Shown one piece after another: positions 1-42,031 of a DNA stretch of 43,638 nt. The notes under the pieces were generated by a model. It ran no database searches, was not told the origin of the DNA, and saw only the letters and a list, made by a program, of their open reading frames with translations. This DNA comes from Parcubacteria group bacterium (GTDB taxonomy: Bacteria > Patescibacteriota > Minisyncoccia > Phycocordibacterales > GCA-002724975): assembly GCA_002724975.1 (NCBI GenBank), contig PBQF01000004.1, forward strand, positions 10,443 to 54,080. Direction: 5' to 3'. Both the position numbers and the translations under genes were made by a program. Positions within the stretch are counted from its first letter, which is position 1. The number at the start of each line of letters is the position of its first letter.

Positions 1-40
1 ACCCTTTTTCTTTTCATATAAAAAAGCTAATTTAAACCTT

Positions 41-1105
41 ATGGATGTAAAAGGTAAAAAGGTTTTTGTAGGGATGAGTGGAGGAGTTGATTCTTCTGTT
101 TCTGCAGCATTACTTAAAGAGCAAGGTTATGATGTGACTGGTGTTTTTATTCGTGTTTGGCAGCCAGATTTTACACCGTGTGATTGGCGGGAAGAAAGAA
201 GAGATGCCATGAGAGTTGCGGCACAATTGGATATTCCATTTAAAACATATGATTTTAGGGATGAATATAAAAAAGAGGTAGTTGATTACATGATAAAAGA
301 ATACAGAGAAGGAAGAACTCCAAATCCAGACGTTATGTGTAATCGATATGTTAAGTTTGGCTCGTTTTTACAAAAAGCAATTCAAGAAGGTGCAGATTTT
401 ATAGCAACTGGACATTATGTAAGAAATGAAGATGGCAAGCTTTTAGCTGGAAGAGATGATAATAAAGATCAATCGTATTTTTTATGGACTCTAAACCAAA
501 ACGATTTGAAAAAGATAATTTTTCCAATTGGAGAAATGGAAAAACCAAAGGTTAGAAAAGAAGCCGAGAAACTCAATTTGCATAATGCAAATAAAAAAGA
601 CAGCCAAGGGATTTGTTTTGTCGGCAAGATTGACGTGAAAGAATTTCTTAAGAACTACATTGATTCCAAAGAAGGAAATGTTTTGAATGAGGCAGGAGAA
701 GTAGTTGGCAAACATGATGGGGCCACCTTCTTAACTTTTGGCCAAAGGCATGGATTTACCATTACTAAAAAGACTCCCAATGATAAGCCATATTATGTTG
801 TTGGTAAAAATGTAGACAAGAATACTATTATTGTTTCTAATGAACTTAAAAGGAAAGAGTTTGGTTCGACCAGAAAGGGAGTAGAAATAGAAAGAGTTAA
901 TTGGATTTCCGGAGAAATTCCAAATTTAGACAAAAAATATAGGGCGCGACTTCGGTATAGACAAAATTTAAGAGACTGTAAAGTTGAAGCTAACAATAAC
1001 AAAATAGAAATAGTTTTTGATGAGCTTCAAGAAAATGTCACTTCTGGACAATCACTTGTCCTCTATGACGGCGAAATCTGTCTTGGAGGAGGAGTTATAT
1101 TTTAG
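41..1105 (+). CDS. mnmA: tRNA 2-thiouridine(34) synthase MnmA
   Basis: N-terminal PP-loop GMSGGVDSSV. Full-length match in order and length to the MnmA/TrmU architecture, including the NPD..C and QSYFL motifs. Confidence 0.93.
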   Translation: MDVKGKKVFVGMSGGVDSSVSAALLKEQGYDVTGVFIRVWQPDFTPCDWREERRDAMRVAAQLDIPFKTYDFRDEYKKEVVDYMIKEYREGRTPNPDVMCNRYVKFGSFLQKAIQEGADFIATGHYVRNEDGKLLAGRDDNKDQSYFLWTLNQNDLKKIIFPIGEMEKPKVRKEAEKLNLHNANKKDSQGICFVGKIDVKEFLKNYIDSKEGNVLNEAGEVVGKHDGATFLTFGQRHGFTITKKTPNDKPYYVVGKNVDKNTIIVSNELKRKEFGSTRKGVEIERVNWISGEIPNLDKKYRARLRYRQNLRDCKVEANNNKIEIVFDELQENVTSGQSLVLYDGEICLGGGVIF

Positions 1106-1118
1106 TAAAATAATCTTA

Positions 1119-1982
1119 ATGCAGGAAAAGAAAGCAGAAGTTCTTATTAAAAAACTTGATGGGACAGTACAGCCTTTTGATGAAGAGAAGCTTCGTCTGT
1201 CTCTTGATCGTTCTGGGGCATCTCCAGGGGCAATTGAATATATTGTAACTCATATAAACAATGAACTAAGTGAAGGTATGACCACCAGTCATATCTACAA
1301 GCGCGCTTACAAACTTTTAAAAGAGAAGGAAGAAACTTCTGCTCCAGCCGCTCGCTATTCGTTAAAAAGAGCTGTTATGGAGTTAGGTCCGACTGGCTTT
1401 CCTTTTGAAAGATTTGTTGGAGAGATTTTTAAAATCAAAGGTTACAAGATTACACTTGGAAGTATCTTAGAAGGAGTTTGTGCTTCTCATGAAATTGATA
1501 TTCTGGCAGAAAAAGGGGATGAGCTAGTACTGATAGAGACAAAATTTCATAATGAACTTAAAGTCAAATCTGATTTAAAAGTTGCTCTTTATGTCAGAGC
1601 CAGATATGACGATTTAGAAAAAAATAATTTTACTGGACAGTTAAAAGAAAAACAAAAACACCAATGCTGGATTATTACTAACACTAGTTTTACCAAAAAT
1701 GCTGCTAAGTATGGCAAATGTGCAAATATGGAAATGATTGGTTGGAGCCGCCCAGTTGGGAGGAGCCTCCAAGATTTGATAGAAGAAACAGCACTCCATC
1801 CACTTACTTGTTTAACAGCTCTCTCTGTTTCAGAGAAGAATAATATATTGAAAACAGGGAACGTCTTATGTCGCGATGTTAAAAATAACCCAAGCCTATT
1901 AGAGAGTACTGGTTTGAGTAGCAAAAAGGCAAGTTCTGTTCTGGAGGAAATAAGCCGTGTCTGCGTACCACGTACACACTAA
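1119..1982 (+). CDS. ATP-cone domain fused to an Mrr-like PD-(D/E)xK restriction-endonuclease domain
   Basis: The track ORF 1017..1982 overlaps mnmA, so ATG at 1119 (MQEKKAEVLIKKLDG..) is the likely start. The N-terminus resembles an ATP-cone (V.IKK.DG..QPFDEEKL..SL). The middle has HEIDILAEKGDELVLIETKFH, a D...E-x-K nuclease core. Confidence 0.7.
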   Translation: MQEKKAEVLIKKLDGTVQPFDEEKLRLSLDRSGASPGAIEYIVTHINNELSEGMTTSHIYKRAYKLLKEKEETSAPAARYSLKRAVMELGPTGFPFERFVGEIFKIKGYKITLGSILEGVCASHEIDILAEKGDELVLIETKFHNELKVKSDLKVALYVRARYDDLEKNNFTGQLKEKQKHQCWIITNTSFTKNAAKYGKCANMEMIGWSRPVGRSLQDLIEETALHPLTCLTALSVSEKNNILKTGNVLCRDVKNNPSLLESTGLSSKKASSVLEEISRVCVPRTH

Positions 1983-2985: not shown

Positions 2986-3020
2986 GTCATTATAAAAGGT
3001 GTTTGTGTTAAAATACTTGA

Positions 3021-3833
3021 ATGTCTGAATATAAACCTCATAGACATCCGAGTTGGAATTACGGTGGAAAAAGGTTTCGATTAAGTCGTTCAAAAATTGA
3101 CTTATTTTCAATTTGCCCGAGGTGCTTCTATATAGATAACAAATTGGGTACAGCTCGACCAAGAGGTCCAGCATTTACTTTGAATATTGCTGTAGATGAA
3201 TTATTAAAAAAAGAGTTTGATTTCTACAGAGCTGAAGGCTCACCCCATCCTTTAATGAAAGAGTATGGAATAAATGCTGTGCCGTTCAAGCATCAGGATA
3301 TGGATAAATGGCGTGACTCACTTCGTAGGGGTGTGGAATATTTTCATGAACCGACCGACTTTAATATTTCTGGTGGAATTGATGACGTCTGGGTAAATCC
3401 TGATACTAATGAACTTTATGTCGTTGATTATAAGGCTACGGCCAAGAACAATAAAATGAACGAACTTTCAGATACCAAGTGGGAGAATCAATACAAAAGA
3501 CAAATGGATATCTATCAATGGCTCTTGCGAAAGAATGGCTTACAAGTTTCAGACACAGGCTATTTTGTCTATGCCAATGGTGATAAATCAGCAGAATCTT
3601 TTGACAGCAAACTAGAATTTGATATGACCATAATTCCTTATGAAGGTGATGATAGTTGGGTAGAGGGCTCTTTGATGAATATCAAAAAGACATTAGATAG
3701 TGAAGAGATTCCTAAAGCAAGTGAAGACTGTGAATACTGTGCATACAGAAATGCGGCAATTAAAGTTATAAGTGAGAAAACAAAAAAGAAAAATGAGCCG
3801 AAAGGAACAAAAGAAAAAGACACCCTTTTCTAG
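3021..3833 (+). CDS. PD-(D/E)XK nuclease, RecB/Cas4-like with Cys pairs
   Basis: GGIDDVW ... VVDYKAT (D / D-x-K core) followed by QMDIYQWLL (QxxxY). CPRC near the N-terminus and CEYC near the C-terminus resemble Cas4/AddB-type Fe-S ligands. Confidence 0.7.
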   Translation: MSEYKPHRHPSWNYGGKRFRLSRSKIDLFSICPRCFYIDNKLGTARPRGPAFTLNIAVDELLKKEFDFYRAEGSPHPLMKEYGINAVPFKHQDMDKWRDSLRRGVEYFHEPTDFNISGGIDDVWVNPDTNELYVVDYKATAKNNKMNELSDTKWENQYKRQMDIYQWLLRKNGLQVSDTGYFVYANGDKSAESFDSKLEFDMTIIPYEGDDSWVEGSLMNIKKTLDSEEIPKASEDCEYCAYRNAAIKVISEKTKKKNEPKGTKEKDTLF

Positions 3834-4682: not shown

Positions 4683-5281
4683 ACTCCGAAGAAAAAAAAG
4701 AAAAAATGAAAGAAATTCGGGACGAGGTTGTAAACCTTAAAAAATCTCCCTTATACCATTATCGAACTGAGCATAATTATTATCCGGTAATCGGACAGGG
4801 GAGCCATGATGCCAATATTATGTTTATTGGTGAAGCACCAGGAGAAAATGAAGCTAAAACTGGGGTGCCTTTTTGTGGCGCTTCTGGAAAATTTTTAGAT
4901 GAACTTTTAGACCATATTAATATTTCACGTGAGAAGGTTTATATTACAAATGTTTTAAAAGACCGACCTCCTGGAAATAGGGATCCTTTAGCAAATGAAA
5001 TAGGAATGTACGCACCTTTTTTGGATAGGCAAATCGAAATCATAGGACCGAAGGTTATAGCGACTCTTGGGCGATTTGCGATGAATTACATTATGGAGAA
5101 ATTCGGATTAAAAGACCAAATCACAAAAATAACTGAAATGCATGGAAAAGTTTTTGATGTGGACACTCCAACCCACAGTTTTAAAATTGTGCCTCTTTAT
5201 CATCCGGCTGTAGCCATCTACAATGCCAATAATAAAGATGAATTAAAAAAGGACTTTGAGGTTTTGAAGTCCCTAGTATAA
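4679..5281 (+). CDS. uracil-DNA glycosylase, family 4
   Basis: GEAPGENE motif A, PFCGASG, and the C-terminal YHPA motif. ATGA overlap with pcm. Confidence 0.88.
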   Translation: MNSEEKKEKMKEIRDEVVNLKKSPLYHYRTEHNYYPVIGQGSHDANIMFIGEAPGENEAKTGVPFCGASGKFLDELLDHINISREKVYITNVLKDRPPGNRDPLANEIGMYAPFLDRQIEIIGPKVIATLGRFAMNYIMEKFGLKDQITKITEMHGKVFDVDTPTHSFKIVPLYHPAVAIYNANNKDELKKDFEVLKSLV

Positions 5282-5288
5282 TCAATAT

Positions 5289-5468
5289 ATGAAGTACGCT
5301 GAAAAAATAAGAATTGAAGATGGATTACCACTGTCTTTACATAAGGTGGAATGGGAGGCTTTGAAAGGGAGACATGGCGGTTTAAAATATTATTTTTTTA
5401 AGATAAATCTTTTAATTCCATGTGTTTTCACGCTACTTTATTTGTTTATAATAGTTTTTTCTCTCTAA
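5289..5468 (+). CDS. unlisted 59-aa ORF, tail-anchored small protein (hypothetical)
   Basis: Hand translation gives MKYAEKIRIEDGLPLSLHKVEWEALKGRHGGLKYYFFKINLLIPCVFTLLYLFIIVFSL. It fills the udg-alaS gap exactly, with its stop 1 nt before the alaS ATG. TATAAT at 5277-5282 lies 6 nt upstream, as at other gene starts here. One residue below the apparent length cutoff of the ORF track. Confidence 0.4.
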   Translation: MKYAEKIRIEDGLPLSLHKVEWEALKGRHGGLKYYFFKINLLIPCVFTLLYLFIIVFSL

Positions 5469-7177: not shown

Positions 7178-7345
7178 GTCTCCTGTATTAGGAGCAGGGG
7201 TGGAGACACTTGTTGTTGGAAACCGAGCCAATAGCTGATCTGTCCCTGTTCTCTAGTCCGCCGCTCTTGTGACATAGTACACCCAGCTTCTTTGGAAGCT
7301 ACGCATAACGCGACTCGTTGTCACAGGTTGGCAACGAGTTTTTTG
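7178..7345 (+). ncRNA. candidate structured RNA / attenuator-like element downstream of alaS (family unknown)
   Basis: Noticeably more G+C than its flanks and no ORF. Perfect hairpin AGCTTC-TTTG-GAAGCT (7285-7300). An intrinsic terminator ends the element, and an alternative helix TGTGACA (7268-7274) / TGTCACA (7319-7325) overlaps the terminator's left arm. Confidence 0.4.
7314..7344 (+). terminator. intrinsic terminator
   Basis: CTCGTTG (7314-7320) pairs with CAACGAG (7332-7338) and is extendable by two pairs. It is followed by TTTTTT at 7339-7344. Confidence 0.7.
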
Positions 7346-7431
7346 ATTAGCTTATTTTTACAGAAGAATGCTACACCTTCTTTTTAACATTTCTGTTTTT
7401 AGTTTTTTCTCTCTCAATTTATACTTAGGGT

Positions 7432-8655
7432 ATGCTTTTTCCTTTTGTTAAGAGTGAGAATAAAAAAAGAGGCAAAACTGTTTTGATTCTGGATATTGGC
7501 AGTGGTAGTGTTGCAGGCTCTTTTGTTGAATTAGCCCAGAATAAGAATCCGAAAGTTATGTATGTTAAAAGGGTTCCAATGAAGTTCGTTAGAGAACTTT
7601 CTGGTAATCGTTTTAAAAAAGGGATGTTTACTGCTCTGGGCGTGGTTCTAGATGATTTAAGTAAAAAAGGTTTGTCTTCTCTTGGTAGTGATGCCTCAAA
7701 AAAGAGAATTAAAAAAGTTTATTGTTCTTTGGCTTCTCCCTGGTTTGTCTCACAAACTAAGACTGTGAAAATCAAAAAAGAAGAACCTTTTGTTATAACA
7801 AGCAAATTTATTTCAGATTTTCTTAACAGAGAAGAGGGAGATTTTGAAAACTCAAATTTGTCCAAATATGGTTCAGGAAGAAAACAGGAATCGGAAGTTA
7901 TTGAAAGAAAACTTATAGACATGAAATTAAACGGCTATAAGGTGGGGAATCCTCTGGGTAAGAAAGCTAAAGAGGCTGAACTGACCTTGTTTTTAAGTAT
8001 GTCTCAAACGAGTATCCTAGACGAGATTGAAGATGTTATTACCAAATATTTTTATACCGAAGATTTAACCTTCCATTCCTTTACCCTTGTTTCATTTTCT
8101 GCAATTAGGGATATGTATGACAGAGTTACGGACTTTCTTCTTTTGGATATTGCAGGAGAAGTAACTGACATTTCATTGGTGAAGCAAGGAAATGTTCTGA
8201 AGACAATGTCATTTCCTGTTGGTAAGAATACTCTGCTTCGCTTTTTAGCAGAGGAACTAAGGACTTCTTCAGAGGAAGCATTGTCGTCTCTTCGGCTTTT
8301 CTACACCGAGTCACTTTTTGGTGGCAAAATTGATAAATTAAGAAAATCCATTACTAAAGTTGGCGGAACATGGCTTAGAGAATTTAGAAATGCTTTAACA
8401 ACTTTGTCAACTGGGGACAGTGTTCCATCAACGATTTTCTTCACAGCAGACGAGGATTTGTCTAATTTTTATAATAGACTCATGAAATCTGAAGAGTTTT
8501 CCCAGTCTATAATGACAGATGGACTATTTGTTGTGAGTTTTGTCAACTGCTCTAGTCTCGATTCTTATGTATTATTTAGGACGAAGGAGGAGAAAGATAC
8601 CTTTATAGCCATCGAGGCAATCTTCTTTAACAGGGTGTTTGAATTAGAAAGGTAA
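7432..8655 (+). CDS. actin/Hsp70-fold ATPase, FtsA/PilM-like
   Basis: N-terminal VLILDIGSGSVAG phosphate-1-like motif and a later LLLDIAGEVTDISL phosphate-2-like motif. The 407-aa size is compatible with FtsA/PilM. Which of the two it is cannot be told from sequence alone. Confidence 0.55.
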   Translation: MLFPFVKSENKKRGKTVLILDIGSGSVAGSFVELAQNKNPKVMYVKRVPMKFVRELSGNRFKKGMFTALGVVLDDLSKKGLSSLGSDASKKRIKKVYCSLASPWFVSQTKTVKIKKEEPFVITSKFISDFLNREEGDFENSNLSKYGSGRKQESEVIERKLIDMKLNGYKVGNPLGKKAKEAELTLFLSMSQTSILDEIEDVITKYFYTEDLTFHSFTLVSFSAIRDMYDRVTDFLLLDIAGEVTDISLVKQGNVLKTMSFPVGKNTLLRFLAEELRTSSEEALSSLRLFYTESLFGGKIDKLRKSITKVGGTWLREFRNALTTLSTGDSVPSTIFFTADEDLSNFYNRLMKSEEFSQSIMTDGLFVVSFVNCSSLDSYVLFRTKEEKDTFIAIEAIFFNRVFELER

Positions 8656-10053: not shown

Positions 10054-10082
10054 TTGACTTTAGCTCTATACGAGTCTAATAT
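10054..10082 (+). promoter_or_regulatory. sigma-70-type promoter of the infA-ribosomal protein block
   Basis: TTGACT (10054-10059), a 17-nt spacer, then TAATAT (10077-10082), 34 nt upstream of the infA ATG. Confidence 0.7.
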
Positions 10083-10116
10083 AGCTCGTACATGCCTATT
10101 TTAGGGCTAATATTTA

Positions 10117-10335
10117 ATGGTTGAGAAGGAGAATAGAGATAAAAATGAAGTGGGGACAGTGACGGAAGCGCTCCCCAACATCCTTTTTCGCGTCTTGTTT
10201 GAAGACGGAAGAGAGGAGCTTGCCTATCTTGGTGGGAAAATGAGAGTTCATAGGATTAGAATTCTTGTTGGAGACAAGGTTGAAATCAAGCTTGATCCTT
10301 ATGGCGGAAAAGGTCGAATCATTCGAAGACTCTAG
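10117..10335 (+). CDS. infA: translation initiation factor IF-1
   Basis: 72-aa S1-fold protein with G.V.E.LPN..FRV.....E..AY..GKMR...IRIL.GD.V..E...YD-like pattern. Confidence 0.93.
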   Translation: MVEKENRDKNEVGTVTEALPNILFRVLFEDGREELAYLGGKMRVHRIRILVGDKVEIKLDPYGGKGRIIRRL

Positions 10336-12917: not shown

Positions 12918-13262
12918 ATGAAGCATCAAAAGGTCGGACGAAAATTTGGCAGGAAAACTAATCAAAGAGAGGCACTCATGCGCTCTTTGGCTCTTTCTCT
13001 TATTAACGAGGGGAAAATAAAGACAAGTCTTGCTAAAGCCAAAGAACTCCGTCCTTATGTGGAGAAAATTGTCACTAAGGCAAAAATCAATTCTGTTACT
13101 TCTAGAAGAGCGGTTAAATCCAAACTTGGTGCTGACAACAAGAATTTGTTTGATAAAGTTGCGCCAACTTACAAAGACAGAAGCGGAGGTTATACAAGAA
13201 TTACCAAGCTTGGCAATAGGGCAAGTGACGGAAGCCAGACGGCTTTAATAGAATTCGTATAA
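12918..13262 (+). CDS. rplQ: 50S ribosomal protein L17
   Basis: MKHQKVGRKFGRKTNQREALMRSLA is the canonical L17 N-terminus. ATG 12918 is preferred over the track start 12897, which overlaps rpoA. Confidence 0.93.
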   Translation: MKHQKVGRKFGRKTNQREALMRSLALSLINEGKIKTSLAKAKELRPYVEKIVTKAKINSVTSRRAVKSKLGADNKNLFDKVAPTYKDRSGGYTRITKLGNRASDGSQTALIEFV

Positions 13263-13263
13263 T

Positions 13264-13608
13264 ATGGAGTACAAAATTGATGCAAAAGGAAAGAAATTGG
13301 GAAGATTAGCGAGTGAAATCGCCACTCTTTTGATGGGTAAAAATTCCCTTGATTTTGAGAAGCATAAAGTAGCCGATGTAAAAGTTGTTGTTTCTGGCGC
13401 TTCAGGACTTGATATATCTGCTAAAAAAATGGAAGACAAGAGATATAAAAGTTTTTCTGGTTACCCGAGCGGATTGAAAGTAAAATCTGCAAAAGAGATT
13501 GTAAAAGTCCATGGTTACGGTGAGCTTATCAGAAATGCGGTTAAAGGAATGCTCCCAGGTAATAAGTTGAGAAGCAGGCTTTTAAAAAATATAGAGATAA
13601 CTGAATAA
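13264..13608 (+). CDS. rplM: 50S ribosomal protein L13 (short form)
   Basis: D..G...GRLAS.IA..L.GK ... Y...SGYPGG-like (SGYPSGL). Conserved position before rpsI. Confidence 0.9.
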   Translation: MEYKIDAKGKKLGRLASEIATLLMGKNSLDFEKHKVADVKVVVSGASGLDISAKKMEDKRYKSFSGYPSGLKVKSAKEIVKVHGYGELIRNAVKGMLPGNKLRSRLLKNIEITE

Positions 13609-17549: not shown

Positions 17550-17649
17550 AAGACACTTTATTGCCTAAATTCTTAAGAACTTAAGCAATATATAAAAAGC
17601 AAAAGAAGACATTGGATACTTTCCTTTTCTTTAGGTATAATGATTTAAC

Positions 17650-18295: not shown

Positions 18296-18301
18296 AGATT
18301 C

Positions 18302-25917: not shown

Positions 25918-25926
25918 AATTTCATC

Positions 25927-28156: not shown

Positions 28157-28279
28157 AAAAAGAGCCCTTTCTCCTTGGAAGGGGTTCTTGAGCTCCACGT
28201 CCCAACTTGGGGTAGTGGAATTTATCCCCAGATTAAGCCATTTTTTGCTTATTAGGCTCATTCGAGTTAGAATTCACCT

Positions 28280-29338
28280 ATGATTTTAGATATCATAAAA
28301 GTTTTTGCTCCGGTCACAGTCTCATTTTTTATCGGAATGGCCCTAACTCCAATTCTGACCCATTATCTCTATAAGCATAAAATGTGGAAGAAGAAAGTGA
28401 AAAGTGTGGCTATTGACGGTCGTGCTACGCCAGTTTTTACAAAACTCCACGCTGGAAAAGAAGTAGGAACCCCTCGGATGGGGGGAATTATTGTTTGGGC
28501 TAGTGCCATAGCTACTATTTTACTTTTCTGGATTCTGGCAATGGCTTTCCCAAATGACTTACTTTTTGAAAAGATGAATTTTTTAAGTAGAGGACAGACA
28601 TGGCTTCCACTCTTTACTTTTTTTATTGGAGCTTTAGTCGGATTGCTTGATGATTATTTTGAGATAAACGAAAACAGTGATTATTTTGCTGGCGGGCTAT
28701 CTCTTAAAAAAAGATTATTTATTGTTTTAATACTTTCCTTAATTGGAGGTTATTGGTTTTTCTTTAAACTTGGTGTTTCGACAATTGCCATTCCTTTTTT
28801 TGGGGAGTTAGCCTTGGGTTCTTTTTTTATTCCTTTTTTTGCATTGGTTATGCTGTTTATTTATTCCGGCGGAATTATTGATGGCATCGATGGCTTGTCG
28901 GGCGGAGTTTTTGCAACAATTTTTTCTGCTTATGGACTGATAGCTTTTTTACAAAATCAAATTGACTTAGCTGCTCTCTCTTTTGTTGTAGTTGGAAGCC
29001 TTTTGGCTTTCCTTTGGTTTAATATTCCACCGGCTAGATTTTATATGTCCGAAACGGGTACTATGGCCCTAACCCTTCTCTTAACTGTTGTGGCATTTCT
29101 GACCAAACAAGTTGGAGTTTTACCAATCATTGCTTTTCCTTTAGTTGCGACTACTCTTTCAGCTATAATTAATGTCACCTCAAAAAAGTTTAGGGGAGGG
29201 AAGAAAGTTTTTCTTTCAACTCCTATCCATCACCACTTTGAAGCAATTGGCTGGCCTGGATATAAAGTAGCAATGAGATACTGGGTTATATCCGTAGTGG
29301 CAGCAATAATAGGATTAATTATCGCTTTAATCGGGTAG
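28280..29338 (+). CDS. mraY: phospho-N-acetylmuramoyl-pentapeptide-transferase
   Basis: Polytopic membrane protein with GLLDDY, IDGIDGL and HHHFE motifs typical of MraY. Confidence 0.95.
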   Translation: MILDIIKVFAPVTVSFFIGMALTPILTHYLYKHKMWKKKVKSVAIDGRATPVFTKLHAGKEVGTPRMGGIIVWASAIATILLFWILAMAFPNDLLFEKMNFLSRGQTWLPLFTFFIGALVGLLDDYFEINENSDYFAGGLSLKKRLFIVLILSLIGGYWFFFKLGVSTIAIPFFGELALGSFFIPFFALVMLFIYSGGIIDGIDGLSGGVFATIFSAYGLIAFLQNQIDLAALSFVVVGSLLAFLWFNIPPARFYMSETGTMALTLLLTVVAFLTKQVGVLPIIAFPLVATTLSAIINVTSKKFRGGKKVFLSTPIHHHFEAIGWPGYKVAMRYWVISVVAAIIGLIIALIG

Positions 29339-29379: not shown

Positions 29380-29435
29380 TACAATTTAGACTCTCAACAA
29401 AGCCATAAATTTTGAAGAGTGTATCATAGTGTGAT

Positions 29436-30536
29436 ATGAAAAGGACAGTAGATAAACCATTTTTAATGATAACATCAATCTTAGTTCTTTTAGGTTTTTT
29501 TCTTTTTGTTTCTGCTTCCTTGGGTCTTTTAGCCAGAGAGGGCATTGAATTTTCTTCAGTTTTATTTAATCAGATTGTTTTTGGATTAATTGGAGGATCT
29601 CTGGCAATGTATTTTACCTCCAGAATTAATTATTCGTTTTGGAGAAAGTATTCGTTTTACTTTTTCTTGGCAGCTCTTCTTATTACGGCAGCCGTTTTTA
29701 TTCCTGGCATTGGTCGGACTGCAAATGGCGCTACCAGATGGATTTCAATTGGGCCCTTGCCCTCGTTCCAACCGGTTGAACTTTTGAAACTTGGTTTTGT
29801 TATTTATTTAGCAGCTTGGATTTCAGGTGTAAAAGGAAAAATTAGAACTTTTCAATATGGGTTCCTTCCTTTGATATTGGTAATTGGAATTATAAGTGGT
29901 CTGCTTTTGCTACAACCAGATACAGGAAGCGTCTTAGTAATTGCCGTAGCTGGTTTGGCTATGTTCGTTACAGCCGGCGGTAGATGGAGAGATGTTTTTA
30001 TAGCAGGCCTAATAGGTATTATTTTTTTGGCTGGGCTTGCTTATTCAAGACCTTATATTTTTGACAGAATAGAGACTTTTATAAAACCTGGTGAGGATTT
30101 ACAAGGCTCTTCATATCAACTGAATCAATCTTTGATTGCAATTGGTTCTGGACAGATATTTGGTAGGGGATTTGGACAAAGTGTCCAGAAATTTAATTAT
30201 TTACCAGAACCGATTGGAGACTCGATTTTTGCCGTGGCAGCCGAAGAATGGGGTTTTGTTGGAAGCACCGTCTTAATATTTTTATTTCTAGCTTTTGCCA
30301 TTCGTGGTTTAAAAATAGCAACATGGTCCAGTGATATTTTTGGTGGACTCTTGGCCACGGGCATTGTTATACTAATTACAGTTCAGTCATTGGTTAATAT
30401 AGCCTCAATGCTGGGAGTTTTTCCATTAACAGGAATGCCGTTACTCTTTGTCAGTCATGGAGGAACTGCGCTCTTTTTTGCCATGGCTGAAGTTGGGATT
30501 ATTCTGAATATTTCAAAACAAAGGCAATTAACCTAA
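29436..30536 (+). CDS. ftsW: SEDS-family peptidoglycan glycosyltransferase FtsW/RodA
   Basis: 10-TM SEDS pattern, FQPVELLK, and PEP..DSIFA. Sits between mraY and murG. Confidence 0.88.
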   Translation: MKRTVDKPFLMITSILVLLGFFLFVSASLGLLAREGIEFSSVLFNQIVFGLIGGSLAMYFTSRINYSFWRKYSFYFFLAALLITAAVFIPGIGRTANGATRWISIGPLPSFQPVELLKLGFVIYLAAWISGVKGKIRTFQYGFLPLILVIGIISGLLLLQPDTGSVLVIAVAGLAMFVTAGGRWRDVFIAGLIGIIFLAGLAYSRPYIFDRIETFIKPGEDLQGSSYQLNQSLIAIGSGQIFGRGFGQSVQKFNYLPEPIGDSIFAVAAEEWGFVGSTVLIFLFLAFAIRGLKIATWSSDIFGGLLATGIVILITVQSLVNIASMLGVFPLTGMPLLFVSHGGTALFFAMAEVGIILNISKQRQLT

Positions 30537-31799: not shown

Positions 31800-31819
31800 A
31801 CATATGATAAAATATGGCT

Positions 31820-33130
31820 ATGACCAAGGTTATTACCAGATTTCCACCAAGTCCTACTGGATATTTTCATATCGGGAGTGCCAGAACGGCTCTTTTCAAT
31901 TATCTTTTTGCTAAAAATAACAACGGAGAGATGATTTTAAGGTTTGAGGATACTGATAAAGAGAGAAGTAAGCCAGAATATGAAAAAGACATTCTAGAAG
32001 GTCTTAATTGGCTTGGAATAAAGCATGATAATGATAGTGTCCCCAAGCAATCAGAAAGACTGGGAGTTTACAGAAAGCACCTACAGGAACTTATCAATAA
32101 AGACATAGCATATATTTCTAAAGAGAAAGAAGGAAAGAGAGATGAAGTTATCCGATTTAGGAATCCAAATACAAAGATTAAATTTAATGACCTTATCCGA
32201 GAGGAGGTTGAATTTGATACAACTGACTTGGGCGATTTTATAATTGCCAAATCGTTGGATGAGCCAGTTTATCATCTGACAGTTGTGGTAGATGATTACG
32301 AAACAGATATAACACACGTTATTAGAGGTGAAGACCATATTTCAAATACAGCCAGACAGATTTTAATTTTGGAAGCACTCGGGTTTGCAAGACCAATTTA
32401 TGTCCATATTCCGTTAATTCTCGCAGCAGACAGAAGCAAGCTCTCAAAAAGACACGGAGCAGTTTCAATCATGGAGTATAAAGAGATGGGGTATTTACCA
32501 GAAGCAATTGTAAATTATCTTGCTTTATTAGGATGGAATCCCGGAACAGAAAAAGAAATATTTAGTATGGATGAACTGATTGGGGAATTTAGCTTGGGGA
32601 AAGTTCAAAAAGGGGGAGCTGTTTTTAATTCGGAGAAACTTGATTGGATAAATAAGAAACATTTAGGAAAATTAACTAACGAGGAGTTTGTAGATATTGC
32701 AAGGGAACATATTCCGGAAAATTTAAAGAACTTCCCAAACTTTGATTTACTTCTTGCTTCAATAAGAGAAAGAATTAACAAGACGAGCGATATTGACAAA
32801 TTGGCAGAAGACGGAGAGTTTGATTTTTACATTGACGAACCCGAGATGAATCCGGAAAAAATTGTTTGGAAAGACGAAGGGAATAGTGCTGCAAAGGAAA
32901 ATCTTAAAAAAGTTGTTTCACTTTTGGAAAGGGTTGATGATTTTTCGTATGAAGGCGTAAAGAGTGCAGTCCAGCCGTTTGCAGATGAAAGGGGTAGAGG
33001 AAGTGTTATGCATCCAATGAGAATTGCTTTAACTGGTAGAGATAAGTCTCCAGACCCATTTACTATTGCCGGTATTTTAGGAAAAGAGCAAACAATAATA
33101 CGGCTTAATAGAGCCATAGAATTACTTTAA
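31820..33130 (+). CDS. gltX: glutamate--tRNA ligase
   Basis: PSPTGYFHIGSAR (HIGH) and KLSKR (KMSKS). The second ATG (31820) is preferred because TGATAAAAT ends at 31813; ATG 31814 is the alternative. Confidence 0.9.
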   Translation: MTKVITRFPPSPTGYFHIGSARTALFNYLFAKNNNGEMILRFEDTDKERSKPEYEKDILEGLNWLGIKHDNDSVPKQSERLGVYRKHLQELINKDIAYISKEKEGKRDEVIRFRNPNTKIKFNDLIREEVEFDTTDLGDFIIAKSLDEPVYHLTVVVDDYETDITHVIRGEDHISNTARQILILEALGFARPIYVHIPLILAADRSKLSKRHGAVSIMEYKEMGYLPEAIVNYLALLGWNPGTEKEIFSMDELIGEFSLGKVQKGGAVFNSEKLDWINKKHLGKLTNEEFVDIAREHIPENLKNFPNFDLLLASIRERINKTSDIDKLAEDGEFDFYIDEPEMNPEKIVWKDEGNSAAKENLKKVVSLLERVDDFSYEGVKSAVQPFADERGRGSVMHPMRIALTGRDKSPDPFTIAGILGKEQTIIRLNRAIELL

Positions 33131-34417: not shown

Positions 34418-34447
34418 ATTAAAGTTTAAAAAGGATAGAATTCTATT

Positions 34448-34753
34448 ATGAACAGACAAGGTGGACTTATAAAACTTATCATTGTAATTATCATCGCAAT
34501 AATAGTTTTGTCATATTTTAGTTTTGATTTGAGGAGTATAGTTGAGGCACCGCAAACGCAAGACAATTTAGGATATGTTTGGGAACTTTTAACAATACTC
34601 TGGGTTGATTATCTGTCTCAGCCAATACTTTATTTTTGGAATAACATTTTTATTGACTTGCTCTGGGAGACCTTTATCTCAAATTTTGAAAGGATTAAAG
34701 CAGGGGAGTCAACTGATTTTGAATTAAATACTCCAAGCGTGGAATTTAACTAA
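34448..34753 (+). CDS. hypothetical membrane-anchored protein
   Basis: 101 aa with an N-terminal TM helix (LIKLIIVIIIAIIVLSYF). TAGAAT at 34436-34441 lies 6 nt before the ATG. Confidence 0.55.
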   Translation: MNRQGGLIKLIIVIIIAIIVLSYFSFDLRSIVEAPQTQDNLGYVWELLTILWVDYLSQPILYFWNNIFIDLLWETFISNFERIKAGESTDFELNTPSVEFN

Positions 34754-35568: not shown

Positions 35569-35589
35569 TGTCCTATATTTTATAGGACA
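35569..35589. promoter_or_regulatory. perfect 9-3-9 palindrome upstream of lexA (candidate operator / SOS box)
   Basis: TGTCCTATA-TTT-TATAGGACA read directly, 23-43 nt upstream of the lexA ATG. On the lexA strand its centre reads TATAAAAT, which is -10-like. Confidence 0.5.
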
Positions 35590-36313: not shown

Positions 36314-36401
36314 AATAATTCATAATTAATAATGCTTTTAATACACAAATGATAGCAGTTAATATTTCCCTTGTAAAAACATATTTATCCAGAAGTACTT
36401 G

Positions 36402-36430
36402 TTGACAATCTGTAAAGTATGTTGTGTTAT
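36402..36430 (+). promoter_or_regulatory. possible rightward promoter inside the long non-coding stretch
   Basis: TTGACA (36402-36407), a 17-nt spacer, then TGTTAT (36425-36430), which is a weak -10. No credible CDS downstream. Confidence 0.35.
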
Positions 36431-36616
36431 CATATAAGGGCAGGGGAGGAATGGGTTTTTCCACCCTTTTCATCCTGGAAATTTTTGACAGAGAATGTGA
36501 AGTAGGGAAATAGAGAGCTAAAATATATAAAAATACGACTAAATTAGAAGAAAGGGTTTTTTGAAAAATTTTTAAAAATTTTATTTTTTGAAGATTTGAG
36601 AAGTTTCAAAGTGAAC

Positions 36617-36652
36617 TATAGTGTCGGAAAATGTATATTGTGCGACACTATA
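36617..36652. repeat. perfect 10-bp inverted repeat with 16-nt spacer
   Basis: TATAGTGTCG (36617-36626) and CGACACTATA (36643-36652), read directly. Confidence 0.6.
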
Positions 36653-36914
36653 TTACTTCTAAAATGGGGCTATTTAGCCCTTTCCCCTAACAATTTAATA
36701 GTTAAGTTGTTTAATTTTTATTTTATATTTCTTATTGTAAAAAAATCTTATCCAATGTACTCTTGTGAACAGATATCCACCCACCAAAAACTTTCAGTTC
36801 TCTAGTGGTCTGGATAGCCACTATGTAGTGAAGGATGTTTTCTGACGGTCGGGGTTTTTTACCAAAGCCGTTAGGATTTCAAATCTCATTACTGTTCTGT
36901 TAGCCTTCTATAAT

Positions 36915-36958
36915 CCCAATAAAGTCTCTGGCTTTCCCAGCCCTTAGACTTTGTTGGG
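36915..36958. other. long interrupted hairpin (16 bp in three segments) just 3' of the 36969 gene
   Basis: CCCAA/TTGGG (36915-19 / 36954-58), AAAGTCT/AGACTTT (36921-27 / 36946-52), GGCT/AGCC (36930-33 / 36939-42). No T tract on the minus strand, so not a canonical terminator. Confidence 0.45.
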
Positions 36959-36968
36959 GTCTTCCTTT

Positions 36969-37334
36969 TTATATCCCCTTGCAGTTTGCCGCAGGTTCGT
37001 ATCCAGCTGTTTCTGCAGCTTCTTTTGAATCAAACCAAACTTTATTTTCTTCTTTTATTCTTAAAGCTCCAGAACACCAAGGTAAATGATACTTTGTTCC
37101 ATTTTTAGAAACTACGTATTTACCTCCAATAGGGGAACTCTCCCCCACTGCCTGACTTTTTTCGGAGTTTATAGTTGTTGCAGAATTTTCAATTAATCTT
37201 ATTGGTTGTTTTTCATCTTCAATTTTTGAAAGTCGTCCCAAACCAAACGAAGCTGATGCTACTAAGATGATAATAAGGACAATGTATATATTGTCTCCAA
37301 TATTGATTTTTTGACCTAAATTTCGTATACTCAC
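36969..37334 (-). CDS. membrane-anchored protein with C-terminal Cys-containing Ada-like / YH..C...GY.P...C motif domain
   Basis: The C-terminus reads KYHLPWCSGALRIKEENKVWFDSKEAAETAGYEPAANCKG. The track start 37433 is a GTG that overlaps rpmA antisense. In-frame GTG 37334 gives a short basic N-terminus plus a TM helix, and is preceded by TGCTAAAAT (37351-37343) 8 nt upstream. Confidence 0.6.
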   Translation of the reverse strand: MSIRNLGQKINIGDNIYIVLIIILVASASFGLGRLSKIEDEKQPIRLIENSATTINSEKSQAVGESSPIGGKYVVSKNGTKYHLPWCSGALRIKEENKVWFDSKEAAETAGYEPAANCKGI

Positions 37335-37365
37335 AGGGCTTAATTTTAGCAAATAATACTTATTT

Positions 37366-37638
37366 ATGGCGCATCGGAAAGCTGGTGGATCAGCTAAAAA
37401 TCTAAAGGATTCAAAACCAAAGTTCCTTGGCACAAAGCTCTATCAGGGTGAAAAAGCTAAGACTGGTAGTGTTATTGTAAGACAAAGGGGTACAAAAATT
37501 GAGGCCGGGGAAAATGTTAAGGTTGGCAAGGACCACACACTTTTTGCACTTAAATCTGGGGTGGTTAATTTTAGGGAAAAAAGAAAAAAGCGATTTGACG
37601 GGAAAATAGTCAGAAAAAAAGTTGTAGATATAAAATAA
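37366..37638 (+). CDS. rpmA: 50S ribosomal protein L27
   Basis: [18 protein letters not shown]...GE ... RQRGTK...G.NV..G.DHTLFA is the canonical L27 sequence. Confidence 0.95.
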
Positions 37639-37671: not shown

Positions 37672-38091
37672 TTAGGAAGGGTTTAAGACTAGTTTCACTT
37701 TTGTCTTTTTTTCTCCAACTTGAATTTCAATTGTATACTCCCCAACCTCTTTAATTGGATGCTCGAGTAAAATGTTTTTGGCAGGGATGCCAGAATGTCT
37801 TGAAATTTCCTCCTTCCCTACTCCAGCAAACAAATAACCTTTTTCATTTGCCTTTTCTTTTATTTCAATTTGTTTTATGTCCCTGACTTTCTTGCCAAGA
37901 GCTTCCAGATTAACTTTGTTGACAGCCTCTTCTTTAACCCTCAGGCCTTCAATTTTCTTTATCGATTGAGGAGTAGCTAAAATAGCCATTTTTTTGGGGA
38001 TTAAAAAGTTTAAAGCAAATCCATCTTTAACTTCTTTAATATCATTTCTCTGCCCTACTTTTGGGACATCTTTAAGTAAAATAACTTTCAC
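37672..38091 (-). CDS. rplI: 50S ribosomal protein L9
   Basis: From GTG 38091 the product is (M)KVILLKDVPKVGQRNDIKEVKDGFALNFLIPKKMA, the canonical L9 N-terminus. The track start TTG 38112 adds 7 non-conserved residues. TATAAT (38106-38101) lies 9 nt upstream of the GTG. Confidence 0.9.
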   Translation of the reverse strand: MKVILLKDVPKVGQRNDIKEVKDGFALNFLIPKKMAILATPQSIKKIEGLRVKEEAVNKVNLEALGKKVRDIKQIEIKEKANEKGYLFAGVGKEEISRHSGIPAKNILLEHPIKEVGEYTIEIQVGEKKTKVKLVLNPS

Positions 38092-38111
38092 AGCAAGGGG
38101 ATTATAGCACA

Positions 38112-38388: not shown

Positions 38389-39630
38389 CTATTTTTCCAA
38401 AAGAATTTCCACCGCTTTCTCCAACTGTGGATCCAAGCCAGCATTGAAATCTTCGATTGTCATTTCAACCTCTACATCTGGTTTAACTCCCCCATCAGAA
38501 ATTGAATTTCCATTCGGTGTCAGCCATTTGGCAACTGTTACTTTAAGTGATGCACCATTTGTTACATCTGCCAATTCTTGAACGGAACCTTTGCCAAAAG
38601 ACTTACTTCCGACGATTGTAGCAACATCATGTTCTTTTAATGCCCCAGCCAAAATTTCTGAAGCTGAAGCACTTCCTCTGTCAACCAAGATTACAAACTT
38701 CAAATTCTCGTTAAAAATATCATAACCCTTGCTTCTATGTATTAAGTCTTCTCCATTGTTTTTGTAATCTTCCGTGACAATTATTTTACCAACAGGCAGG
38801 AACCAAGAAGCAATATCAATCGACGCTTCCAAAAAACCACCTGGATTTCCACGCAGGTCCAAAATTAATTTATTACTACCACCATTTATAAAGTTTCGAA
38901 GAGCGATCCTAAATTCGTTCGGTGATATGGCTGAGAAGTTAAATAGTCTAATTACAAAGACACCATCTGGCCGAAGTTCTGATTCCATTGTTGGAATTTT
39001 GATAATGTCTCTGACAACATCAATATCAAAAGTTCCTTCTCTCCCTTCTCTAATTAAGGTTAATTTAACACTCGTGCCAATTTCCCCTCTTATAACGCTT
39101 ACAGATTCATCAACACTCATATTGGCCGTACTTTCTCCATCAACAGCCAAAATTATATCTCCTGCCTGGATTCCTGCTCTTTCTGCCGGGGTATCTTTCA
39201 AAGGGGCAATAACTATTAAAATGCTGTCGCGAATACCGATTTCCATTCCAACTCCGCCAAAATTTCCGCTTATGTTCTCTGCAAAAAGTTCTGCTTCCTG
39301 TGGGGGTAAGAAGTTGGTATAAGGATCACCCAAAGAACTTGCTAAACCGGAAATTGCACCCCAAATCTTGTCTTGTGGCTCTATATCTTCATTATCTACA
39401 TATTTTTCATTTATGATATTCCAAGCTTTCCAAAAGACTGAGAAATCAACCTGTTCTGGTTGGCCTAAATCCTGATTTGCGACTTCTGTAACTTTACTTT
39501 CTTCACTATTTTCTCCGACGAACATTCCAGTAAAAAAGGCTCCTATGATTAGAAGCAACATGATGATTGAGGTTAATACTTTATTTCCGCTACCCCTCAG
39601 ATTTTCTGGATTTAATTTTTTTTCTAGCAT
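38389..39630 (-). CDS. S41 family carboxyl-terminal processing protease
   Basis: TM anchor and PDZ region (GIQAGDIILAVDG). GNPGGFL, GSASASEI (Ser) and SFGKGSVQ (Lys) motifs. ATG 39630 is preferred over the track TTG 39669. Confidence 0.9.
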   Translation of the reverse strand: MLEKKLNPENLRGSGNKVLTSIIMLLLIIGAFFTGMFVGENSEESKVTEVANQDLGQPEQVDFSVFWKAWNIINEKYVDNEDIEPQDKIWGAISGLASSLGDPYTNFLPPQEAELFAENISGNFGGVGMEIGIRDSILIVIAPLKDTPAERAGIQAGDIILAVDGESTANMSVDESVSVIRGEIGTSVKLTLIREGREGTFDIDVVRDIIKIPTMESELRPDGVFVIRLFNFSAISPNEFRIALRNFINGGSNKLILDLRGNPGGFLEASIDIASWFLPVGKIIVTEDYKNNGEDLIHRSKGYDIFNENLKFVILVDRGSASASEILAGALKEHDVATIVGSKSFGKGSVQELADVTNGASLKVTVAKWLTPNGNSISDGGVKPDVEVEMTIEDFNAGLDPQLEKAVEILLEK

Positions 39631-39710
39631 TCGGTCATTAATTATCTCAAAGGAAAAGGGTGTGAGCAAGTTTGGTACACAACTTTTTTGTTTTTGGTAG
39701 AATTAAAGGA

Positions 39711-40625
39711 ATGATAAGCAGATTTACTCATAAGAAAATTACTTGGATTGATTTGGAATCTCCGACTAATTCAGAACTCCTTCAAATTGCAAATGAGTTT
39801 AAAATTGTCTCTCTGGTGGCAGACGAGTTAAAATCTCCCAGTATTAAGCCAAGAGTTGATTTATACAAGAATTTTATCTTTTTGATTTTACACTTCCCCG
39901 CTTTTAGACACAGTCATATTAGTCAATCCAATCAAGAAGTTGATTTCATAATCAGCAGGAATTTTTTGATAACAGTCCATTATGATGTAATCGATCCTAT
40001 TCATAAGTTTTCAAAAGAGTTTGAGGTTGAATCTATTTTGGGGAAGCATGACGTAAGAACTCATGCAGGATTTGTTTTTCATCATTTAATCAGAAAGCTT
40101 TATAACTCTCTTGAACATGAGCTCGAATACATCAACAGTTCTCTTGGTGAAATTGAAGACAGGATTTTTACAGGCAAGGAAAAGGAGGTTGTCAGGGATA
40201 TTTCGGAAGCCAGTAGAGACCTTTTAAATTTCAAGCAGGCCACGAGTTCGCACGAGGAGGTTCTGGAATCTTTTGAGATTGCGGGCGAGAAATTTTTTGG
40301 CGGGGATTTTGATTATTTTCTCCGAGACATTATTAGTGAGTATTATAAAATAAACCGGATTATAAAAAATCATCAGGAATCTCTTTTGGAACTCCGTGAT
40401 ACCAACGATTCTCTTTTGAGTACTAAGCAGAATGAAACGATGAAAATCTTAGCCATTTTGGCTTTTTTGACATTTCCACTCTCTCTTGTTGCTTCGATTT
40501 TCGGAATGAACACGAATTATTTGCCCGTTGTGGGAACAGAGGGCGATTTCTGGATTATTATTAGTATCATGAGTATACTGACCCTTATTTTCTTCTTTTA
40601 TTTCAAGAAAAAAGGGTGGTTGTAG
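39711..40625 (+). CDS. corA: CorA family magnesium/cobalt transporter
   Basis: Two C-terminal TM helices bracketing the FGMN signature (SIFGMNTNYLP). ATG 39711 is preferred over TTG 39672. TGGTAGAAT ends 7 nt upstream. Confidence 0.9.
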   Translation: MISRFTHKKITWIDLESPTNSELLQIANEFKIVSLVADELKSPSIKPRVDLYKNFIFLILHFPAFRHSHISQSNQEVDFIISRNFLITVHYDVIDPIHKFSKEFEVESILGKHDVRTHAGFVFHHLIRKLYNSLEHELEYINSSLGEIEDRIFTGKEKEVVRDISEASRDLLNFKQATSSHEEVLESFEIAGEKFFGGDFDYFLRDIISEYYKINRIIKNHQESLLELRDTNDSLLSTKQNETMKILAILAFLTFPLSLVASIFGMNTNYLPVVGTEGDFWIIISIMSILTLIFFFYFKKKGWL

Positions 40626-40666
40626 GCTCTTTATAGGAAAGTCTTAATCATATATACTTTTAGCCA

Positions 40667-42031
40667 ATGTTGATGCTGAAAAACACCCTTTCGGGTGAAT
40701 TAGAAGAATTTAAACCGATAAAAAAGGGTGAAGTCGGAATGTATAATTGTGGCCCGACTGTTTACAACTACGCTCATATAGGTAATCTCCGAGCTTATGT
40801 TTTTTCTGACATTTTAAAAAGGACTCTCAAATATAATGATTATCAAGTAACGCAGGTTATAAATATTACTGATGTTGGCCATCTAACAGACGAGGGGTTG
40901 GATAAAATAGAGGAAAGAGCTAAAGAAGAAAGCAAGGGGGTTCAGGATATGGCCAATATGTATATTAAAAAATTTTTTGAAGATCTAAGTGAATTAAATA
41001 TTAATGTTGGGGATACTATTTTTCCAAAAGCGTCCGAACACATAAACGAGCAGATAGAAATGATAGAAAAACTGGAATCTCGGGGCTTTACTTATAAGAC
41101 TTCAGACGGTATTTATTTTAATACTGCCGAGTATATTGGATACGGAAAACTTGGAAATATAAACATTGACGAACTGAAAGAAGGGGCAAGAGTTGAAAAG
41201 AATAATGAAAAGAAAAATATGGCAGATTTTGCTCTTTGGAAATTTTCGGAAAAAGGAGTTAAAAGACAACAGGAGTGGAAATCTCCATGGGGTGTTGGTT
41301 TCCCGGGTTGGCATATTGAATGTTCTGCCATGAGTATGAAGCATTTAGGAGAGCATTTTGATATCCACACTGGTGGAGTCGACCATATTTTCCCCCATCA
41401 CAATAATGAAATTGCTCAGTCAGAAAGTGCTACTGGAAAAGCTTTTGTTAATTATTGGCTTCATGGAGCATTTCTAAATCTGAAGGGTGAGAAAATTTCC
41501 AAATCTAAAGGAAATTTAGTTTTACTTGACGAGATTACAGAGAAGGGACTCAATCCTCTTAGTTATCGTTACTGGCTTCTAACAGCTACTTATAACTCCC
41601 CTCTTAGTTTTTCTTGGGATGCAATTGAGGGTACTGAAATTGCTTTAAATAAATTGCATGACAGATTTAGAGAATTGCCGGAGGGTGGCAAAATTGATGA
41701 TAATTATAGAGCTTTATTTAAAGGATTTATAAATAATGATTTGAATACTCCGAAAGCTATAGCCTTGTTGTGGAACTTGCTGAAGGACAATGATATACAA
41801 CCAGGGGACAAAAAAGCCACTCTCTTAGAATTTGATAAAGTTTTGGCACTTGGCTTGGATAATTTAAGTGAAGTAGAAATCCCTAAAGAGGTTTTGGGTT
41901 TGGTTAAAGAAAGAGAGAAAGCGCGGGGGGAAAAGGATTGGGACAGGTCAGATGAATTACGAAATAAAATTGAAAAGCTCGGTTTTGGGGTTAAGGATAC
42001 TTCAGAGGGTTCAAAAATTTCTAAAATTTAA
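40667..42031 (+). CDS. cysS: cysteine--tRNA ligase
   Basis: CGPTVYNYAHIGNLR (HIGH), the Zn-ligand context WHIEC, and KISKSKGN (KMSKS). Confidence 0.95.
   Translation: MLMLKNTLSGELEEFKPIKKGEVGMYNCGPTVYNYAHIGNLRAYVFSDILKRTLKYNDYQVTQVINITDVGHLTDEGLDKIEERAKEESKGVQDMANMYIKKFFEDLSELNINVGDTIFPKASEHINEQIEMIEKLESRGFTYKTSDGIYFNTAEYIGYGKLGNINIDELKEGARVEKNNEKKNMADFALWKFSEKGVKRQQEWKSPWGVGFPGWHIECSAMSMKHLGEHFDIHTGGVDHIFPHHNNEIAQSESATGKAFVNYWLHGAFLNLKGEKISKSKGNLVLLDEITEKGLNPLSYRYWLLTATYNSPLSFSWDAIEGTEIALNKLHDRFRELPEGGKIDDNYRALFKGFINNDLNTPKAIALLWNLLKDNDIQPGDKKATLLEFDKVLALGLDNLSEVEIPKEVLGLVKEREKARGEKDWDRSDELRNKIEKLGFGVKDTSEGSKISKI

Follow-up and report, generated by a model that had tools for sequence, protein, structure and literature searches.

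How does a bacterium begin translation when promoter -10 hexamers stand directly before its start codons and Shine-Dalgarno (SD) sequences do not? The question is raised by a 43.6-kb stretch of contig PBQF01000004.1 from a Parcubacteria group bacterium (the window: the whole 43,638 nt analyzed, 36-37% GC, ~56 genes, nearly all of them on the plus strand up to 34.9 kb). A first-pass annotation had noticed TAnAAT-type hexamers 6-9 nt upstream of about 20 start codons and read them as a predominantly leaderless architecture, in which mRNAs begin at or next to the start codon. Our analysis supports that reading through a sharp spacer peak that persists in control tests, promoter elements that accompany the hexamers, and SD sequences at or below chance. 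We consider it highly probable that most transcription units here give rise to leaderless or near-leaderless mRNAs from sigma-70 -10 elements abutting their starts, with downstream genes coupled to them in the absence of SD sequences.

All 21 hexamers that had been listed, with their spacers and start codons, lie exactly where they were placed. Among the 22 sites that we regard as clear, spacers of 6, 7, 8 and 9 nt account for 10, 5, 6 and 1, respectively, and the spacer histogram of the window peaks at 6, with background levels at 0-4 and above 10. The same peak is found when gene calls are not used, as TANAAT followed by ATG at spacer 6 occurs 12 times in the window, compared with ~3 times at other spacers. 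Setting gene starts blind to the hexamers, as the first ATG of each long open reading frame (ORF), we found TANAAT at 6-9 nt before 12 of 45 gene-start ATGs and before 11 of 1144 other ATGs (Fisher odds ratio 37, p=1.8e-12); several of these 11 are alternative starts that the first-pass annotation favored. For the looser TANNNT, the corresponding counts are 20 of 45 and 85 of 1144. The full extended motif TGnTAnAAT (TGNTANAAT), followed after 6-9 nt by RTG, occurs 9 times in the window, against 0.9 +/- 0.9 expected from 300 dinucleotide-preserving shuffles (z=8.5). Counting both strands, 9 of the 17 full motifs sit 6-9 nt before a gene start, and the TGn extension is present at 9 of the 21 listed sites. 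Under identical scoring, TANNNT at 6-9 nt precedes 2 of 63 genes in a 50-kb E. coli control, and a hexamer at this distance precedes 6 of 42 genes in a region of the Deinococcus radiodurans MP1 megaplasmid. A 40-nt block shuffle was dropped as miscalibrated, since it breaks up coding constraints and yields too many TA-rich strings.

The spacing extends across the clade. For this comparison we used 80 related Patescibacteria loci (1.26 Mb, 30-60% GC), in which TGNTANAAT is followed by ATG at spacers of 6, 7, 8, 9 and 10 nt in 30, 20, 17, 12 and 9 of 251 cases, compared with ~3.5 at spacers elsewhere. The spacer histogram in sister genomes, which had been proposed as a check on the leaderless reading, thus peaks at 6-9 nt as predicted, and the other computational checks suggested there likewise favored that reading. 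No such peak was found for GTG, TTG or CTG after TGNTANAAT in the same loci. Upstream of 781 non-coupled genes of these relatives, TANNNT is found at spacers 6, 7, 8 and 9 in 113, 69, 58 and 58 cases, over a background of ~22. Divided by GC class, 37%, 31% and 31% of genes carry TANNNT at 6-9 nt, compared with 13%, 11% and 7% at a control offset; since the excess is present in every class, it is not an effect of AT-richness.

The surroundings of the hexamers are those of a promoter. When relatives are aligned on the hexamer, T (50%) and G (48%) predominate at -3/-2, corresponding to the TG of an extended -10 element (the -15/-14 position of a promoter), and TT appears at -23/-22 in 42-44% of cases over a background of 27%, corresponding to a -35 element at a 17-nt spacer. 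An extended -10 TG together with TTG 17 nt upstream identifies the hexamer as a sigma-70 promoter rather than a site for ribosome binding. Where genes are divergent or well separated, 32-41% of the hexamers before them are TG-extended and TTG peaks at a spacer of 16-18 nt. Genes that follow their neighbor by less than 25 nt carry the hexamer less often (26%, compared with 38-40% of non-internal genes), and in these cases it is TG-extended in 20%, lacks a -35 peak and is partly made up of the upstream stop codon. A pyrimidine at -1, taken as a mark of the transcription start, did not discriminate (80% vs 76%, p=0.18).

The local layout of the sites also fits a promoter. At 37334 (minus strand) and 37366 (plus strand, rpmA), two divergent starts lie 31 nt apart, and the rplI hexamer adjoins the T-tract of an upstream terminator (38136-38119). 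The MBL hydrolase gene (18302) and plsC (19015) are each preceded by one copy of an 83-nt direct repeat (18213-18295 and 18924-19006; the copies are 94% identical), and each copy stops exactly at the last base of the -10 hexamer. The repeat is a duplicated promoter cassette, with no conserved 5′ untranslated region after it. In flanking contigs L087 and L088, a similar upstream module (taaggctttacagagccgtatttaa...tgtgatatt) recurs before two or three genes; together with the 83-nt repeat, these modules may represent shared regulatory or promoter cassettes.

At the infA operon, the promoter stands farther from the gene. There, TTGACT-17-TAATAT (10054-10082, plus strand; feature 10054-10119) lies 34 nt before ATG 10117, with nothing TAnAAT-like at 6-9 nt. 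In relatives (loci L002-L031), TTGACn-17-TGnTAnnAT, a strong promoter of canonical form, is conserved ~20 nt before infA. Because this promoter is of the same type, the host evidently uses canonical sigma-70 promoters, and only the distance to the ATG differs. The infA leader is short and SD-less, with a stretch (...acg(c/t)gc...) that is conserved across relatives; opposite as it is to the genome-wide habit, it may be regulated.

Strict SD motifs at positions -18 to -5 occur in 4 of 55 genes, compared with a chance rate of 8.3% in window sequence; the first-pass annotation had already noted that GGAGG-like sequences are essentially absent upstream of the listed genes. The same scoring finds them in 43 of 63 genes (68%) of the E. 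coli control and in 5-9% of genes in the relatives. Genes internal to operons in the window start between -8 and +6 nt from the preceding stop codon, through TAATG junctions at rpsM and pcm, ATGA junctions at udg and aspS, and 1-nt gaps at rpsK, rplQ, rplM, rpsI, the YbjQ gene, the histidine kinase gene and alaS. Across 232 coupled junctions from the window and its relatives, the sequence is A-rich and G-poor, with SD 4-mers at 0.4-0.5 times background. Motif searches, nhmmer with E. coli rRNA and Rfam all failed to find 16S or 23S rRNA, both within the window and across ~1.35 Mb of retrieved loci.

By our own count, the leaderless arrangement is present at 22-25 of ~33 candidate unit starts, which amounts to ~70% of units and ~44-47% of all genes. 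It is thus predominant, though the earlier statement that nearly every transcription unit carries it was too strong: the infA operon (leadered), lexA, the genes at 36031 and 8682, grpE (14048) and the genes of the GC-richer right end lack it. Among the listed hexamers, TAATAC at 37354-37359 lacks the invariant final T, and TAATTT at 28-33, right at the edge of the window, is weak. The hexamer pattern recurs in a flanking contig from the same host, at pth, lepB, a hisS-like gene and others.

Where the start codons on which this spacing is measured can be checked by homology, they are mostly borne out. Profile alignments begin at residues 1-8 of the products of glyS, cysS, rpmA, rplI, scpA, ftsW and mnmA. 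From the hexamer positions, the first-pass annotation had argued for particular starts at plsC, rplI and 37334, and for the reality of a 59-aa ORF at 5289, and each proposal agrees with our results. For rplI, position 1 of the L9 profile falls on residue 8 of the ORF that opens at TTG 38112, which is GTG 38091, also the public start; the start at 37334 is likewise identical to the public gene call. For plsC, the public start at 19108 lies too far downstream, as homology reaches ORF residues 11-13, leaving ATG 19015 or TTG 18997 as the only candidates. The 59-aa ORF (5289-5468), missed by public calls, scores above the Pfam gathering threshold for 8xMP (PF24838; 32.1 bits, cut-off 30). It matches only the C-terminal third of the family (positions 86-135 of 136), and by this match it may be either a mini-version or a remnant of this octameric membrane protein family. 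A homology search with the ORF returned only the ORF itself, and strain variants, at 99.9% identity, were uninformative. Its stop codon is followed 1 nt later by alaS, in tight coupling; alaS has an alternative promoter in the TATAAT that lies 17 nt from its own ATG.

A further case, absent from the earlier list, is an ATP-cone/Mrr_cat gene whose TAAAAT stands 7 nt before ATG 1119 (1106-1121, plus strand). Homologs align from residues 40-44 of the ORF that opens at TTG 1017, and in the protein that starts at 1119 the ATP-cone domain begins with residue 10; starting at ATG 1119 removes an 88-nt overlap with mnmA. Standard gene callers misplace starts or miss genes in genomes of this kind, as seen at plsC (19108 instead of 19015), the ATP-cone gene, corA and the 59-aa ORF, and the -10 spacing rule corrects such errors.

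The motif with its spacing and promoter features, the lack of SD sequences, the conservation in the clade and the N-termini are direct observations; from this geometry, and from established knowledge of bacterial promoters and ribosomes, we infer where transcription begins and how ribosomes are recruited. The hexamers are genuine sigma-70 -10 elements, often in the extended form TGnTAnAAT and with weak or absent -35 elements. RNA polymerase would start on the first base of the start codon itself, A or G (spacer 6), or 1-3 nt earlier (spacers 7-9), given a distance of ~6 nt from hexamer to transcription start, which would make the A of ATG position +1. The predominance of spacer 6 also agrees with a TANNNT signal ~12 bp before the start, a known mark of leaderless genes (PMC3160421). 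Transcripts of this kind would have no room for a ribosome-binding site, and their 5′-terminal AUG or GUG would be recognized directly by the ribosome with initiator tRNA. Leaderless mRNAs are decoded without SD sequences. Internal genes would be reached through termination-reinitiation, or another SD-independent mode of initiation, at their A-rich, G-poor junctions.

Three other explanations have to be weighed against leaderless transcription. Could TAnAAT be a signal for the ribosome, a non-SD binding or translation-enhancer element within leadered mRNAs like that of GeneMarkS-2 'group B' (Bacteroidetes), perhaps pairing with an altered 16S 3′ tail? The loss of the anti-SD reported in a Parcubacteria subgroup (PMC9297842) means that another mRNA signal could have evolved, and the motif does occur 6-9 nt before some internal genes (26% of genes with gaps under 25 nt). 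Its form, however, is the sigma-70 extended -10 consensus, with TG one base upstream and TTG at 17 +/- 1 nt. Before coupled genes it is weaker and without a -35, with stop codons supplying part of it; at infA, the same promoter type stands 20-34 nt away and nothing TAnAAT-like appears at 6-9 nt; and at rplI a terminator directly precedes the hexamer. We regard a ribosome-binding role as very unlikely.

The promoters might instead be real but contribute little, with expression coming mostly from upstream promoters or read-through and leaderless transcripts in the minority. Dense packing of genes on one strand, from 41 to 34908, makes read-through plausible, and the hexamers at 5277, 25915 and 13249 overlap the 3′ end of the upstream gene. 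Yet a sharp 6-9-nt spacing throughout the clade implies that the distance to the start codon is itself under selection, leadered read-through transcripts would be equally SD-less, and some units are preceded by terminators; to this possibility we assign a low probability. Chance was considered as well, as AT-rich intergenic DNA and the stop codons TAA and TAG can produce TAnAAT-like strings by themselves. In its favor are the low GC content of the window, a sequence-wide count of TANNNT no higher than in shuffles (111 vs 113) and a 3-nt periodic background set up by in-frame stop codons. Against it, the enrichment is specific to gene starts and to a spacer of 6-9 nt, with the out-of-frame values 7 and 8 among them; E. 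coli does not show it, and it holds in relatives of 48-60% GC (31% vs 7%). With the excess surviving shuffles and the controls at other ATGs and other offsets as well as this GC range, we reject chance with near certainty.

Several observations nevertheless weigh against leaderless initiation as a full account. Good SD-like sequences stand at the right distance before pcm (4068) and before ftsZ in a flanking contig, and SD pairing may therefore not be entirely lost, surviving at a few genes. Some tightly following genes also have a hexamer, at the lower frequency given above and partly from TAA and TAG stop codons. Transcripts from promoters farther upstream could run through the hexamer sites. 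A generic two-hexamer sigma-70 scan barely exceeds shuffles (63 vs 52.9; 66 vs 54.9); the weakness of the -35 elements and the AT-richness of the DNA leave it without discriminating power. Finally, the infA operon, lexA and other units are not leaderless.

Comparison with known systems places these findings within a described type of architecture. Bacterial leaderless genes of the TA-led kind are defined by a TANNNT -10 element with its first T ~12 nt before the start codon (PMC3160421), and GeneMarkS-2 distinguishes a group C of bacteria, with 25-50% leaderless transcripts, from many archaea with 60-80% (PMC6028130). As in the TA-led genes of Actinobacteria and Deinococcus-Thermus (Zheng et al. 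2011, PMC3160421; group C, PMC6028130), TANNNT lies ~12 nt before operon-first genes, starts are AUG or GUG, and conservation of the signal is clade-wide. The share of genes that carry the arrangement here is at or above the 46% of D. radiodurans, the highest bacterial leaderless value quoted (PMC3160421). In those phyla, however, the other genes are SD-led, whereas here SD sequences are at or below chance before first and internal genes alike; the present genome is also low in GC and strongly reduced, with promoters that are mostly of the extended -10 type. Of the features of group C, we thus find the localized TANNNT signal, the promoter companions and the true N-termini, and do not find SD-type ribosome-binding sites at the remaining genes.

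The leaderless-dominant archaea (group D: Halobacteria, Sulfolobus; 60-80% of operons, PMC6028130) resemble our host in their leaderless majority and low SD dependence, but their TATA/BRE elements lie ~25-30 nt upstream, whereas here a sigma-70 -10 stands at 6-9 nt. Bacteroidetes and Cyanobacteria (groups B and X, PMC6028130) share little or no SD and A-rich, G-poor upstream sequence; their mRNAs are leadered, in contrast to the dominance here of promoters abutting start codons. Group B is recognized by a motif that is equal before first and internal genes and so cannot be a promoter, and the motif described here is not distributed in this way. Closest in lineage are the Parcubacteria, a subgroup of which is reported to lack the anti-SD motif of 16S rRNA (Tsurumaki et al. 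2022, PMC9297842). The SD-less mRNAs of our host are what loss of the anti-SD would predict. That study covered rRNA and ribosomal proteins and makes no mention of leaderless mRNAs.

The only transcription-start set for the candidate phyla radiation (CPR) that we found in the literature is that of Nanosynbacter lyticus, inferred from RNA-seq. No paper in the searchable literature contained both 'leaderless' and 'Parcubacteria', and matches with CPR or Patescibacteria were unrelated to leaderless genes. The architecture is of a known kind, in a lineage where it is apparently undescribed. The CPR have reduced ribosomes, and part of the Parcubacteria reportedly lack the anti-SD tail; to the question of how these bacteria start translation, promoters abutting start codons, together with SD-free coupling within operons, suggest a concrete, testable answer. 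More tentatively, and with somewhat less than even confidence, we propose that the branch of Parcubacteria/Paceibacteria to which the host belongs may as a whole have given up SD/anti-SD pairing, with leaderless initiation and reinitiation at tightly coupled junctions as its default. If so, it would be the first bacterial lineage with an archaeal-level leaderless share and no SD back-up, and the anti-SD loss reported for the 16S rRNA of some Parcubacteria would have a functional explanation. Should the CPR be deep-branching, a leaderless default would also bear on ideas about ancestral translation initiation.

The individual sites are given below from hexamer to start codon, on the plus strand unless stated. 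At the left edge of the window, mnmA (28-43) has the weak TAATTT 7 nt before ATG 41, and the MnmA profile aligns from residue 7. TAAAAT precedes both the DUF7282 gene (2050-2065; 7 nt, ATG 2063) and a holin_4-like gene (2725-2739; 6 nt, ATG 2737), and TGTTAAAAT stands 6 nt before ATG 3021 of a PD-(D/E)XK gene (3006-3023). For the 59-aa ORF (5277-5291), the hexamer TATAAT contains the udg stop codon and lies 6 nt before ATG 5289. A 407-aa gene (7420-7434; TATACT, 6 nt, ATG 7432) begins past the alaS terminator (7312-7340). Before rplM (13249-13266), we found a TAGAAT that was absent from the earlier list, 9 nt from ATG 13264, which is possibly an internal promoter within the end of rplQ; some relatives have TATAAT 9-10 nt before rplM.

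Farther along, a 71-aa membrane protein gene (17636-17652) has TATAAT 8 nt before ATG 17650. The two genes downstream of the 83-nt repeat carry TTGCAA-16-TGATATAAT 6 nt before ATG 18302 (MBL hydrolase, 18287-18304) and TTGCAA-16-TGATAGAAT 8 nt before ATG 19015 (plsC, 18998-19017). A methyltransferase gene (19710-19729) has TGCTAAAAT 8 nt before ATG 19727, and glyS (22245-22263) has TGGTAAAAT 7 nt before ATG 22261, with the GlyRS profile aligning from residue 1. TAGAAT is the hexamer of scpA (25915-25929; 6 nt, ATG 25927; ScpA profile from residue 2), where its TAG is the aspS stop codon, of mraY (28268-28282; 6 nt, ATG 28280) and of a 101-aa gene (34436-34450; 6 nt, ATG 34448). The ftsW gene (29422-29438) has TATCAT 8 nt before ATG 29436, with the FtsW profile aligning from residue 7. 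For gltX (31805-31822), TGATAAAAT lies 6 nt before ATG 31820, the start that the first-pass annotation had favored; the alternative ATG 31814 adjoins the hexamer, and homology is compatible with either.

At rpmA (37354-37368; 6 nt, ATG 37366; L27 profile from residue 1), TAATAC is unconvincing as a -10 element, and alternatives are AATAAT at 37352-37357 (8 nt) or TTGATT-17-TATACT at 37303-37331, which would give a leader of ~28 nt. Three sites are on the minus strand: a 121-aa gene (37332-37351; TGCTAAAAT, 8 nt, GTG 37334), rplI (38089-38109; TGCTATAAT, 9 nt, GTG 38091) and a ctpA-like protease gene (39628-39648), absent from the earlier list, in which TGAGATAAT lies 10 nt before ATG 39630, the public start, in a near-leaderless arrangement. 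On the plus strand, corA (39695-39713; TGGTAGAAT, 7 nt, ATG 39711) uses a start given by 1 of 4 public calls, and cysS (40653-40669; TATACT, 8 nt, ATG 40667) is aligned with the CysRS profile from residue 2.

Among the exceptions, ftsZ (L083, 2536-3720, in the flanking contig) is preceded by TGGTAGAAT at 36 nt and, 5 nt from its ATG, by GGAG, and is one of very few SD-like, leadered genes of the host. Upstream of lexA, which starts at 35546 on the minus strand, a perfect 21-nt palindrome, TGTCCTATA-TTT-TATAGGACA (35569-35589), stands at a distance of ~23-43 nt and is likely the LexA operator (SOS box) of this lineage. A contrasting case is found at the right end of the window, where a 120-aa gene of no known family (43011-43373, minus strand; feature 43011-43387; 59% GC) has a canonical AAAAGGAG SD 6 nt before its ATG. 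The strain-variable segment that holds this gene (42975-43638) is 53-59% GC, compared with 37% elsewhere, and the region past cysS differs among strains and assemblies (L087-L090). A chimeric assembly as the cause of this GC-rich end was ruled out, as the 120-aa gene is present in another assembly and the region is strain-variable; the segment is probably a horizontally acquired, variable island.

Among the genes of the window are mnmA, alaS, infA-rpmJ-rpsM-rpsK-rpsD-rpoA-rplQ, rplM-rpsI, grpE-dnaK-dnaJ, glyS-trpS-aspS, scpAB, mraY, ftsW-murG, gltX, lexA, rpmA, rplI, corA and cysS. It holds no tRNA and no Rfam match, and its ribosomal proteins score near or below curated profile cut-offs. The 80 best rpoA relatives (60-69% identity) all belong to metagenome-assembled genomes of Patescibacteria, labeled Paceibacterota, Taylor-, Kaiser- or Nomurabacteria, or with generic CPR names, which points to a host of the Parcubacteria (Paceibacteria) type within Patescibacteria/CPR. 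Several public assemblies contain the window sequence at 99.9% identity, and near-identical contigs of the host occur in many (e.g. MPMF02015029.1, JAMYGE010035962.1 and JASLXD010000020.1); its rpoA protein is indexed in 132 collection blocks, on contigs that never exceed 200 kb. A stretch of ~650 nt (36314-36968), flanked by a 75-aa acidic-repeat ORF and by the 121-aa gene and without a convincing gene, Pfam match or Rfam match, holds an inverted repeat, AGTGTCG...CGACACT, near 36620-36650.

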